From Escherichia coli (lineage in GTDB: Bacteria; Pseudomonadota; Gammaproteobacteria; Enterobacterales; Enterobacteriaceae), in NCBI RefSeq assembly GCF_024223415.1, contig NZ_CP100503.1: a stretch of DNA of 64,000 nt. One strand, given 5' to 3'. The position numbers and the translations under genes were made by a program. This document shows, in pieces, positions 9,162 through 10,724 of this stretch. The notes beneath the pieces are model-generated. The model was not told the origin of the DNA, ran no database searches, and was given only the letters and a program-made list of their open reading frames with translations. Position 1 is the stretch's first letter. Every line of letters begins with the position of its first letter.

Positions 9162-9178
9162 ATTGCTCTAATAATTCC
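9162..9178 (+). promoter_or_regulatory. C1 operator
   Basis: ATTGCTCTAATAATTCC matches the ATTGCTCTAATAAATTT consensus. Confidence 0.6.
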
Positions 9179-9190
9179 ATATTTTTAAAA

Positions 9191-9216
9191 CGTGATGTAC
9201 ACTCATCACGTTTTTT
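9191..9216 (+). terminator. Rho-independent terminator
   Basis: Hairpin CGTGATGTAC-ACTCATCACG followed by TTTTTT. Confidence 0.6.
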
Positions 9217-9227
9217 ATTAGAGCAAT
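9211..9227 (-). promoter_or_regulatory. C1 operator (inverted)
   Basis: TTTTTTATTAGAGCAAT is the reverse complement of the operator consensus; paired with operator at 9162. Confidence 0.6.
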
Positions 9228-9241
9228 CCAAAAGGTGCACT

Positions 9242-9460
9242 ATGTGGCCATTCCGACGGAAATATCACTACTGGCTGATCGCCTTTGTTACGCCGACCGG
9301 CGGTATCAGGCATGTCATCACCAAGTATCGCAACAAGAGACTCACCTTAGCCAGAATTTTACAGGCTGCCATAGGTGAGGGACTGGATACAAATTGCGTA
9401 GTCCTTCCTCCTTCATACTTAGGAAAAATGACCGAAGCACAAGCTAATACGGAACTTTGA
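9242..9460 (+). CDS. Hypothetical small protein
   Basis: 72 aa ORF directly downstream of the double operator. Confidence 0.3.
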   Translation: MWPFRRKYHYWLIAFVTPTGGIRHVITKYRNKRLTLARILQAAIGEGLDTNCVVLPPSYLGKMTEAQANTEL

Positions 9461-9461
9461 A

Positions 9462-10724
9462 ATGAGCACTTCAGCACAAAACCAATCAATCGAAAATGTA
9501 TCTATCCCTGATGTCCTGAATGCCGGTATCCCGGCCATTATCCAGAACATCCGGGCCGCGCAACGCCGCGTTAGTTGTGATGACCTCACAGCACGTTTTT
9601 TTGATAATGCGGTTCAGTCAGCGGAGATGCTTCACGCACAGCTTATTGATGTTTATAACGCAGAAGCTGATAGCCATAACTCCCTGGTAGATGCAGCTGA
9701 AAATATGCAGTTGGATCTCGGTCTGAAGGGTAAAGAAATTGAAGAGCTTCAGCTGCAAATTGAACATTTGAAACGCCAGCAACAGGACGCGATCGACGAT
9801 GCGACGCATGACGCCAACCAGCGTGCTGATAATGCCGAACGTATAAGCATTGAGCTGGAAACAAAACTCAATGAAATGACCGCGATGGTTGAACTGCGGA
9901 ACTCACAGATTTCAACGCTAAAATCTCAATATAAAGAGATCATGAAACTTGATCCTTTTAACCTTGAGAAACGCTATAACAAAGCTAAAAGCGAGCGACA
10001 GGAACTGCGTAAGCAGGTCGCCGACCTTAACCAACAGCTCAAAAAAACTATTAAAGATGCAAGCGAAGCGCGCGTGGCATTTGCTAATAAAAAAGCAGAG
10101 GTTACCGCGCTGGTTAATGAGAATGCCAAATTTGCGACGCTCAAGAAGGAAATGTATGGCATTACTGAGCGCCGTTTCCCTGCAAGCAAACGTCATCCGA
10201 CGTTAGGGCAAATCTCCTTCTTCCCGCGCCTCCTGGCTTATGGGATCTCATCGCCTAAAGAGTTCAATAACGAGCGTCCTTATATCGTTTCTAAGCTGGA
10301 CTTTGCTTATCAGTTCTGCTGCGACATGGGCTATGCCATTGATATCCGGATCAACGAATGGTTGATGCCAAACTTCCAGCCGTTGGCCATTTTCCGCGAG
10401 TTCCAGCCGGAAGGTTGGGTAGAGTTCTTCCATGAATTGATCTGTAAAGCGATGGAAAGCCGCCGCCCGGAACTGGTCCGTCGAGTTGAGTGGGCGCAAG
10501 AGGTTATGTTGGCAGAGGCAGAGCTGCCGTTCGAACCGGAATTTATTGATGATCTGGCAACTAAAGGGCTGCATACCCTGTTTGATGTGGTTACCCGCCG
10601 TCATGAGCAGTTGGTTGTCGAATTGGGTTTAGAGGAAACTGCGGCAAGAAGACTTCTCGATGTTTGCTATGCACGTAGCGATGCATGGGAAAAAGAGAAC
10701 GGCGGCACTATTTACGTTCGCTGA
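9462..10724 (+). CDS. Hypothetical coiled-coil protein with globular C-terminal domain
   Basis: 420 aa; start overlaps the upstream stop (ATGA); long heptad-rich region. Confidence 0.45.
   Translation: MSTSAQNQSIENVSIPDVLNAGIPAIIQNIRAAQRRVSCDDLTARFFDNAVQSAEMLHAQLIDVYNAEADSHNSLVDAAENMQLDLGLKGKEIEELQLQIEHLKRQQQDAIDDATHDANQRADNAERISIELETKLNEMTAMVELRNSQISTLKSQYKEIMKLDPFNLEKRYNKAKSERQELRKQVADLNQQLKKTIKDASEARVAFANKKAEVTALVNENAKFATLKKEMYGITERRFPASKRHPTLGQISFFPRLLAYGISSPKEFNNERPYIVSKLDFAYQFCCDMGYAIDIRINEWLMPNFQPLAIFREFQPEGWVEFFHELICKAMESRRPELVRRVEWAQEVMLAEAELPFEPEFIDDLATKGLHTLFDVVTRRHEQLVVELGLEETAARRLLDVCYARSDAWEKENGGTIYVR

Follow-up and report, generated by a model that had tools for sequence, protein, structure and literature searches.

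Two inverted operators for the phage repressor C1, with a hairpin between them, lie upstream of two open reading frames at positions 9162-10724 of the window (the whole 64,000-nucleotide stretch of Escherichia coli DNA analyzed here). What do these operators control, and is the operon a new one? A preliminary description of this DNA had read the arrangement as the tightly repressed double-operator layout expected of ban, placed in front of an operon of unknown function that could serve as an induction-specific accessory function.

Identity of the locus

To place the operon, we compared it with the records of P1-family phages. The operon stretch was 98.9-99.4% identical at the DNA level to 19 such records, and the identity of the locus to the pmgR-pmgS (shtA-shtB) locus of P1 and P7 was 98.9-99.2%. 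In the P1 GenBank record AF234172 the operators are already annotated as OpmgRa and OpmgRb (formerly Op86a/b), and so are the genes pmgR and pmgS and, as a prediction, the promoter PpmgR; the P7 counterparts of the operators and genes are the genes shtA/shtB and the operators Op(sht[a])/Op(sht[b]). The genes that matter to the argument, and the hairpin that closes the operon, are as follows.

8459..9160, + strand: pmgQ (hdmD in P7), which ends the upstream C1-controlled pmgN-ppp-pmgQ operon; open reading frame with P1 and P7 annotation
9242..9460, + strand: pmgR (shtA), 72 aa, 71/72 identical to P1 PmgR; matches PHROG 3177 over its full length
9462..10724, + strand: pmgS (shtB), 420 aa, 416/420 identical to P1 PmgS; matches PHROG 1660 over its full length
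10744..10772, + strand: intrinsic-terminator-like hairpin closing the pmgR-pmgS operon; 11-bp stem with 6 G-C pairs, then TTTTT
10797..11303, + strand: pap, the downstream neighbor, annotated in P1; HAD-type polynucleotide kinase/phosphatase-like (PHROG 415/505, ‘polynucleotide kinase’)
24632..25483, - strand: c1, the repressor gene, acting in trans on the operators; 278/282 identical to P1 C1.100

As the PHROG label for C1 was uninformative, the identity of c1 was confirmed by aligning its product with P1 C1 directly. The product of pmgQ is glycosyltransferase-like (PHROG 1962, ‘glycosyltransferase’, E 2.5e-128). A scan of positions 8000-12000 against Rfam returned nothing near the family thresholds, and no relevant paper on Op86 came up in a search of the literature.

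Because the P1 and P7 records carry the operators, the predicted promoter, and both genes at homologous positions, the identity of the locus is settled. It is very likely the C1-repressed pmgR-pmgS early operon of the P1 family, with operators and genes that were known before. The preliminary description was correct that two real reading frames of 72 and 420 codons follow the operators and that neither encodes a helicase. Its claim of novelty, on the other hand, falls on the ground that it had itself named, since these are known and conserved P1 genes whose products match those of P1 at the identities listed above. The P1 genome annotation has included both genes, their operators, and the predicted promoter since 2004, and they are conserved in P1-like phage-plasmids. 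What the present analysis adds is the (HhH)2 domain of the PmgS family, the genomic contexts of its distant homologues, and the conservation of the operator-hairpin-operator module.

Operators, hairpin and promoters

The regulatory elements are packed between the end of pmgQ and the start of pmgR.

9162..9178, + strand: OpmgRa (formerly Op86a), a C1 operator, ATTGCTCTAATAATTCC; annotated as protein_bind ‘phage repressor C1’ in P1 and P7
9163..9191, + strand: PpmgR, the promoter predicted in P1 record AF234172; -35 TTGCTC (9163-9168), -10 TAAAAC (9186-9191)
9176..9203, + strand: candidate alternative promoter between the operators; -35-like TCCATA (9176-9181), 16-nt spacer, -10-like TACACT (9198-9203)
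9187..9216, + strand: terminator-like hairpin and T-run; stem 9187-9197/9204-9214 (a perfect 11-nt inverted repeat), loop 9198-9203, T-run 9211-9216
9211..9227, - strand: OpmgRb (formerly Op86b), a C1 operator, ATTGCTCTAATAAAAAA; annotated in P1 and P7

Each operator agrees with the C1 consensus ATTGCTCTAATAAATTT at 14 of 17 positions, and all three mismatches fall in the AT-rich tail. The 13-nt core ATTGCTCTAATAA is perfect in both, so that the two cores form a perfect inverted repeat. Operator-like sites are strongly enriched in the window (15 found versus 0.32 expected), and the paired pattern TCTAATAA-N-ATTAGA occurs at a single place, OpmgRa/OpmgRb, versus 0.01 expected. The other 13 sites are scattered over the window at known P1 operator positions. 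The two inverted operators of the preliminary description are thus borne out, but the likeness to ban is not. OpmgRa and OpmgRb are separate putative monovalent sites (each is annotated as monovalent), inverted and 32 bp apart, and they do not overlap in a palindromic unit of about 28 bp as the divalent operators Op72ab and Oc1ab do.

The hairpin that was said to lie between the operators is also present. At 9187-9214, 27 nt past the pmgQ stop codon, an 11-bp stem and a 6-nt loop fold with a dG of -13.4 kcal/mol (z = -7.0). The stem may alternatively be counted as 8 bp, with the A-U pairs assigned to the tail, and is then followed by UUUUUUAUU. The T-run doubles as the AT-rich tail of OpmgRb. 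In P1 the stem is A/T-rich, with 3 G-C pairs, and a simple terminator scan did not list it, presumably because extension of the stem through flanking A/T pairs shortens the T-tail that is counted. This composition, together with an interruption of the T-run in the clade with 52% PmgS identity, suggests that the hairpin may terminate poorly, or that it may have been conserved for some other function. It probably marks the end of the pmgQ transcript.

The module as a whole has been conserved. In P1, in P7, and in relatives whose PmgS is 71%, 63%, or 52% identical, the operator-hairpin-operator span is invariant at 56 nt. The stem sequences differ among clades, three clades besides that of P1 having a hairpin of different sequence at the same place, and all of them fold (dG -12.3 to -16.5, z -5 to -7). 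The operator arms in relatives shift to other operator-like variants (TTGTTCTAATAA, TTACTCTAATAA), and they do so on both sides. This nesting of operator, terminator-like hairpin, and candidate promoter with invariant spacing is a compact regulatory design, and it could be reused, since P1 parts are common tools.

Of the two candidate promoters for pmgR, neither is strong in P1, and neither was detected by a consensus promoter scan. The -10 element of PpmgR is not conserved in the relative L010. The -10-like hexamer of the alternative candidate sits in the hairpin loop, and at the same aligned positions relatives have better hexamers: TTTACT-16-TATCAT in L007 and L010 and TTGATT-16-TATTAT in L008. 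No P1 late-promoter -22 box (at most one mismatch) was found upstream of the operon in window positions 1-12792, which is consistent with early, C1-dependent expression. A Shine-Dalgarno-like AAGGTG lies upstream of pmgR at 9232-9237.

These observations suggest the following model. In the prophage or plasmid state, C1 would occupy the two separate monovalent, inverted operators that flank a weak sigma-70 promoter, with one molecule lying over or beside the -35 region and the second immediately past the start site. The hairpin and its T-run, which is part of OpmgRb, would most likely end transcripts arriving from the upstream pmgN-ppp-pmgQ operon, leaving expression of pmgR-pmgS to a C1-controlled promoter of its own. 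An operon mRNA initiated from the -10-like hexamer in the loop would lack the 5' arm of the hairpin and would escape termination. Inactivation of C1 would lead to expression of PmgR and PmgS. PmgR would act as a 72-residue factor, absent from the virion, that is needed for joined and infectious particles. PmgS, translationally coupled to it and dispensable, is a coiled-coil protein with a C-terminal (HhH)2 domain; early in lytic growth it would act on DNA or on a partner bound to DNA, and it would not be a head or sheath component.

PmgR, PmgS and the competing readings

The published phenotypes of the two genes are quite different. Deletion of pmgR yields no infectious particles and leaves heads and tails unjoined; complementation was done, and the gene is essential (PMC9024508). 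The deletion gives <10^2 PFU/mL, with tails and incomplete heads, and is rescued in trans. A pmgS deletion, on the other hand, forms normal plaques on EcoA, EcoB, and EcoK hosts, and CRISPRi knock-down scores the gene as nonessential. PmgS is nowhere named in the main text of the P1 virion proteome paper, and neither protein is among the virion proteins given in the available part of the 2026 cryo-EM description of the P1 virion. Comparison of PmgR and PmgS with PDB chains (phmmer) gave nothing meaningful. The unknown function originally ascribed to the operon therefore does not hold for pmgR, whereas it does for pmgS, which is dispensable and has no assigned function. An accessory function expressed on derepression is likewise a fair description of pmgS, though not a new finding, as it belongs to an annotated P1/P7 operon.

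The pmgS start codon lies 1 nt past the pmgR stop codon. The 420-residue protein consists of an N-terminal helix, a coiled-coil hairpin (41-234), a domain without known fold (about 238-350), and, at the C terminus, an (HhH)2 domain (about 350-413). The modeled helices 41-160 and 168-234 are consistent with the coiled-coil hairpin, in line with the coiled coil that had been noticed earlier. The (HhH)2 domain of the family, with two helix-hairpin-helix motifs in a five-helix arrangement recognized by sequence profiles, is of the RAD51-N-terminal/RNA polymerase alpha-CTD type. P1-type PmgS itself had no significant Pfam hit, only insignificant coiled-coil matches, and the second of its hairpin motifs has degenerated to ELGLEE from KGIGxK; DNA binding by PmgS is accordingly putative. 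An SMC/LmuB ATPase identity was considered and rejected, as the scores were 16-18 bits against cut-offs of 300-729, the similarity reflects coiled-coil composition, and the model has no ATPase head or fold.

Distant homologues of PmgS were encoded in early regions and never among structural genes. Some adjoin RecT/YqaJ and integrase genes, others are next to DNA methyltransferases, and one is near Tad2-like and Sequestin genes. In non-P1 phages the homologues have no PmgR partner; a Mu Gp12-like gene upstream of one of them proved unrelated to PmgR on direct comparison.

It is plausible, if somewhat short of probable, that PmgS is not morphogenetic and gives its name to a family of early proteins of about 400 aa whose target is DNA or a host factor bound to it. 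The family would have the layout of coiled-coil hairpin, novel-fold domain, and (HhH)2 domain, and in lambdoid prophages its genes lie by RecT/YqaJ recombination modules, DNA methyltransferase genes, or anti-defence genes. Its members would come from phage-plasmids and temperate phages found in Enterobacterales, Vibrionaceae, and Aeromonas, and its roles could include recombination or replication support, protection of phage DNA, or counter-defence. As part of the same tentative reading, PmgR could be an assembly or packaging cofactor and not a structural ‘head completion’ protein.

The main competitor is a truly morphogenetic PmgS, of the head or the sheath, which would work with PmgR in assembly. 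It might, for instance, be a scaffold or chaperone that does not end up in the virion and that the phage can do without in the laboratory. The names point this way (‘ShtB sheath contraction’ in the P7 record, ‘PmgS-like head morphogenesis’ for PHROG 1660), as do its coupling and co-transcription with pmgR, whose loss prevents heads and tails from joining, and the retention of the pmgR-pmgS pair in P1-like clades with PmgS identities as low as 26-30%. The phenotype of its operon partner makes a subtle morphogenetic role for PmgS conceivable. Long coiled coils are moreover common in scaffolding proteins, and there is a weak match to Pfam Phage_scaffold (E about 1). However, ‘pmg’ is an explicit placeholder for ‘putative morphogenetic function’, and in the literature the assembly defect on deletion belongs to pmgR only. 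The normal plaques of the deletion, the absence of PmgS from the virion protein lists as qualified above, a domain typical of DNA- or transcription-factor-binding proteins, and the early, recombination, and methylase contexts of homologues without PmgR all speak against a morphogenetic PmgS, and we consider it unlikely. The widely propagated head-morphogenesis label thus rests on a placeholder name and is at odds with what the knock-out, proteome, and cryo-EM papers report, as well as with the domain architecture and gene contexts described here; that PmgS is an early, DNA-directed (HhH)2 protein is a testable hypothesis in its place. Another possibility is that PmgS is SMC/LmuB-like or a counter-defence protein, which might, for example, mimic the RNA polymerase alpha-CTD or draw off coiled-coil defence ATPases as a decoy. 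Weak coiled-coil matches to SMC (NCBIfam, E 5e-4) and LmuB (PADLOC, E 1.5e-4), the homologue adjoining Tad2-like and Sequestin genes, and the alpha-CTD-like C-terminal domain are in its favor, but the pmgS deletion plates normally on three type I restriction hosts, and this explanation appears rather improbable.

Two further readings concern the regulatory region. In the first, the 13-nt inverted arms and the hairpin inside them would serve mainly as structure, in RNA or DNA: a long composite stem-loop working as a terminator, an insulator, or a processing site for the pmgQ transcript, with the resemblance to C1 operators being secondary. Positions 9162-9227 as a whole do fold into one extended hairpin (dG -26.9 kcal/mol, z -6.5), and the inner hairpin is conserved through sequence changes. 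The arms, however, match the C1 consensus exactly over the core, in relatives they become other operator-like variants on both sides, and the further sites in the window are at known operator positions; the strictly fixed spacing fits protein-binding geometry as well as it does RNA structure. A structural element of this kind is therefore quite improbable. The original proposal of an unrecognized induction-specific accessory operon under a ban-type, tightly repressed double operator gains something from the two C1 sites preceding the operon, from a dispensable pmgS without demonstrated function, and from homologues in accessory or early regions. It is nevertheless highly improbable, and refuted as a claim of novelty, since the P1 and P7 records already annotate the two genes with their operators and promoter, pmgR is known from published work to be essential, and the ban operator is a 28-bp divalent overlapping unit located elsewhere. 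The C1-repressed pmgR-pmgS operon remains the preferred identification.

Comparison with known systems

The locus shares with P1 the gene order pmgQ - operators - pmgR - pmgS - pap, the operators, the hairpin, and the proteins. It differs by two substitutions in the stretch that leads from OpmgRb to the start codon of pmgR, by one amino-acid change in PmgR and four in PmgS, and, 3' of pap, by a type I hsd locus in place of the pmgT-lxr region of P1.

The ban operator Obanab (Op72ab) is divalent, with two 17-mers (68667-68683 and 68678-68694) that overlap by 6 bp in a 28-bp unit without an intervening hairpin, and Oc1ab is built likewise; OpmgRa and OpmgRb, in contrast, flank a terminator-like hairpin. 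The two systems have in common that an early operon is controlled by two inverted C1 half-sites lying over a sigma-70 promoter, predicted in the case of pmgR. In P1 coordinates the pmgR operators are at 82,152 and ban at 71,295-72,659, with about 13.5 kb between the two operators, and ban maps just before the start of the window.

The (HhH)2 domain of PmgS can be likened to the N-terminal domain of RAD51/RAD51C, the bacterial RNA polymerase alpha-CTD, and the NusA AR domains. Finally, the hairpin resembles Rho-independent terminators that overlap the promoter or operator of the next operon, in that a stem-loop and U-run directly follow the pmgQ stop codon and adjoin, on the upstream side, the ribosome-binding site of the next gene. 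Unlike in such terminators, the U-run here is part of a putative repressor operator, and a -10-like hexamer lies inside the loop.

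The pmgR-pmgS operon and its operators

Across 9100-10800 the sequence shares 98.9-99.4% identity with 19 P1-family phage records. At the homologous position the P1 record (AF234172) annotates a "monovalent C1-controlled operator OpmgRa" (formerly Op86a) governing expression of pmgR and pmgS, a second operator, OpmgRb (formerly Op86b), and PpmgR, a predicted sigma-70 promoter. Both genes are labeled "putative morphogenetic function" in that record, while in the P7 record they appear as shtA and shtB, with Op(sht[a]) and Op(sht[b]) as the operators.

Features of the pmgR-pmgS operon
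9162-9178 (+): C1 operator OpmgRa, ATTGCTCTAATAATTCC
9187-9214: hairpin between the operators, perfect 11-bp stem, 6-nt loop
9211-9227 (-): C1 operator OpmgRb, ATTGCTCTAATAAAAAA
9242-9460: pmgR, 72-aa ORF, AAGGTG just 5'
9462-10724: pmgS, 420-aa ORF, start 1 base past the pmgR stop codon
10744-10772: strong terminator-like hairpin closing the pmgR-pmgS unit, 11-bp stem with 6 G-C pairs, then TTTTT

The preliminary description had presented this as an operon of unknown function. Because both genes are annotated in P1 and P7, their products are nearly identical to those of P1 (PmgR 71/72, PmgS 416/420 residues) and c1, the repressor gene, is also in the window (24632-25483, 99% identical), these are known conserved P1 genes, and the double-operator operon was already known. 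We are highly confident that this is the C1-repressed early operon pmgR-pmgS already known from P1, working as proposed below.

The two inverted operator-like sites and both downstream ORFs are present as described. In each operator the mismatches to the P1 C1-operator consensus (ATTGCTCTAATAAATTT) are confined to the AT-rich tail, and the two 13-nt cores repeat each other perfectly in inverted orientation, with 40 nt between them. The window contains 15 C1-consensus-like sites compared to 0.32 expected from shuffled sequences, and the paired pattern occurs once compared to 0.01 expected. Folded alone, the hairpin reaches -13.4 kcal/mol (z -7.0), and the T-run that follows it (9211-9216) doubles as the tail of OpmgRb; a composite hairpin of -26.9 kcal/mol is possible across 9162-9227. 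The terminator claimed between the operators is seen as a stable hairpin with a T-run, and terminator activity is its probable role. A 70-aa ORF with a GTG start on the minus strand (9028-9240) covers this region and the end of pmgQ, the upstream gene; neither P1 nor P7 has it annotated, and it is probably spurious.

Conservation and proposed regulation

We compared the regulatory module across four clades. One comprises the window, P1 and P7; the others are the relatives L007 (PmgS 71% identical), L010 (63%), and L008 with L009 (52%). Inverted operator-like arms are kept in all four, with variants that match on the two arms (for example, TTGTTCTAATAA with TTATTAGAACAA); measured from TCTAATAA to ATTAGA, the span is exactly 56 nt throughout. 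Every spacer holds a stable hairpin (-12.3 to -16.5 kcal/mol, z -5 to -7) whose stem differs by clade (ACGTGATG, GCGTGGTG, GGTGTGGTG, CGGCATGGTG), and a T-run lies 3' of it in three of the four.

The loop region contains a conserved -10-like hexamer (TACACT in P1, TATCAT in L007 and L010, TATTAT in L008) and, 16 nt upstream, a -35-like hexamer (TCCATA, TTTACT, and TTGATT, respectively). L010 does not keep the PpmgR -10 (TAAAAC). These comparisons lead us to propose, as an evenly balanced judgment, that the pmgR-pmgS promoter may sit between the operators. Both PpmgR and the inter-operator candidate are weak in P1. A consensus promoter scan detected neither, and a search upstream of the operon for the P1 late-promoter -22 box found none. 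With the promoter so placed, C1 would flank it on either side. Transcripts derived from pmgQ would carry the full hairpin and terminate, while those initiated just past the loop would lack its 5' arm and continue.

In two distant P1-like phages (PmgS 30% and 26% identical) a pmgQ-like gene is still followed by pmgR-like and then pmgS-like genes, with PmgR 26-35% identical; the operator-hairpin-operator module is missing from both. One of them has a 29-bp gap and no operator. In L011 (PmgS 26% identical) a different 10-bp inverted repeat (CTAATTTATG, 14 nt, CATAAATTAG; 4700-4745) precedes the pmgR-like gene in place of the P1-type pair; a diverged repressor may use it as its operator at this regulatory position.

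The role of PmgS

PmgS belongs to a small family: a search of 1.84 billion proteins gave 77 representatives at E<=1e-3. In an AF2 model based on 39 full-length members (pLDDT 86.6), a helix at the N-terminus is followed by two very long ones (41-160 and 168-234) and then by a beta-rich domain (about 238-305); the C-terminal region is helical. Matches to the family profile include the N-terminal domain of RAD51 (E 7.7e-7), the alpha-CTD of RNA polymerase (1.3e-5), Brr2 helicase, and NusA. Some members individually match Pfam HHH_5 and RNA_pol_A_CTD, and relatives in AFDB bear the automatic name [quoted passage not shown]. The P1-type sequence has no match in Pfam, and the second of its G-h-G hairpins is degenerate.

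None of the distant homologues examined lies within a structural module. In two chromosomal lambdoid prophages (L012, 2565-4974; L016, 6463-6999) the gene lies 3' of a YqaJ recombination module, accompanied by RecT in L012, and 5' of an integrase; on the short contig L015 a downstream integrase is the only neighbor visible. In one such prophage the YqaJ protein includes a segment resembling T7 Gp5.9, and a gene for a Dam methylase follows shortly after. A DNA methyltransferase gene directly follows in a non-P1 phage (L004, 4676-5590), which lacks a PmgR-like partner, and also in Vibrio phage douglas 12A4 (L019, 5996-6628). In a phage-plasmid bearing DarB and ParM, the flanking genes are Tad2-like and Sequestin. 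Outside P1, then, PmgS-family genes repeatedly precede C5/Dam-type methyltransferase genes or follow RecT/YqaJ genes, an association that may hint at their function.

Our preferred reading, held tentatively, is that PmgS is non-structural and DNA-directed. A true morphogenetic protein, as the P1 label would have it, seems unlikely to us, and the labels "head morphogenesis" and "sheath contraction" are unsupported. The P1 neighbors of the operon are enzymes and not virion parts (among them the ppp phosphatase and the PNK-phosphatase-like pap, with the enzyme-like pmgO, pmgP and pmgQ described below). In the virion proteome PmgR was undetected, and the main text of that paper does not mention PmgS (PMC9024508); both are absent from the proteins listed in the available part of a 2026 cryo-EM study, which claims identification of almost all proteins from head to tail (PMC12810830). 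We found no PDB chains matching either protein. Among single-gene deletions made in P1 by Gonzales et al. 2022, that of pmgR abolished infectious particles and was complemented in trans, and that of pmgS gave normal plaques and normal restriction behavior on EcoA, EcoB, and EcoK hosts (PMC9024508). A CRISPRi screen scored both genes nonessential, with pmgR listed as a missed essential gene (PMC10695390), and both are among 21 "extremely conserved" genes in 77 P1-like phage-plasmids (PMC9603915). What the locus still offers is this better-founded hypothesis for PmgS and the finding that its morphogenesis labels are unsupported; otherwise it has little value as a discovery.

Neighboring loci and the ban operator

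The "putative morphogenetic" genes upstream of pmgR (5860-9160, +) are enzyme-like. pmgO and pmgP match PHROG 4603 ("alpha-2,3-sialyltransferase"), pmgQ matches PHROG 1962 ("glycosyltransferase"), and pmgM has matches to Holliday-junction-resolvase and endonuclease PHROGs in its C-terminal part. In distant P1-like relatives the cluster also includes a CMP-sugar-synthetase-like gene (CTP_transf_3); it may be a glycan- or DNA-modification module. The operator of the upstream operon pmgN-ppp-pmgQ, Oppp (formerly Op83; 6445-6461, -), reads TATGTACTAATTAATTT in the window and CATGCACTAATTAATTT in P1. Since the change falls in the core (TGCAC to TGTAC) and leaves five mismatches to the consensus, this element may have weaker C1 control of that operon.

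Downstream, the hairpin at 10744-10772 separates pmgS from pap. The latter begins with TTG, has a strong ribosome-binding site (GAGGAGG) ahead of it, and lacks a predicted promoter. A complete type I restriction-modification locus (11556-17591, -; flanks 11303-11556) encodes hsdR (1038 aa), hsdS (412 aa), and hsdM (520 aa). It replaces the pmgT-lxr variable region of P1, and phages vB_EcoM-673R5 and phi456 share its layout. At this spot the P1 record notes a remnant of ~220 bp homologous to DNA downstream of R124 and EcoDXXI hsdR, which suggests that P1 lost a locus of this kind. The C1 operator OpmgT (11303-11319, +) is now directed at the 3' end of the convergent hsdR.

The preliminary description had also likened the operator pair to that of ban, the P1 helicase gene, and had remarked that the genes are not the helicase expected at the ban position. 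However, ban maps elsewhere in P1 (71295-72659), whereas the pmgR-pmgS operators correspond to P1 82152-82217; by colinear extrapolation, the ban position falls just ahead of the window start. There was no reason to look for a helicase at the pmgR-pmgS site. The layouts also differ. The ban operator Obanab (Op72ab; P1 68667-68694) is divalent, with two overlapping 17-mers sharing 6 bp, while the pmgR-pmgS operators are two separate monovalent sites that lie 32 bp apart and flank a hairpin.
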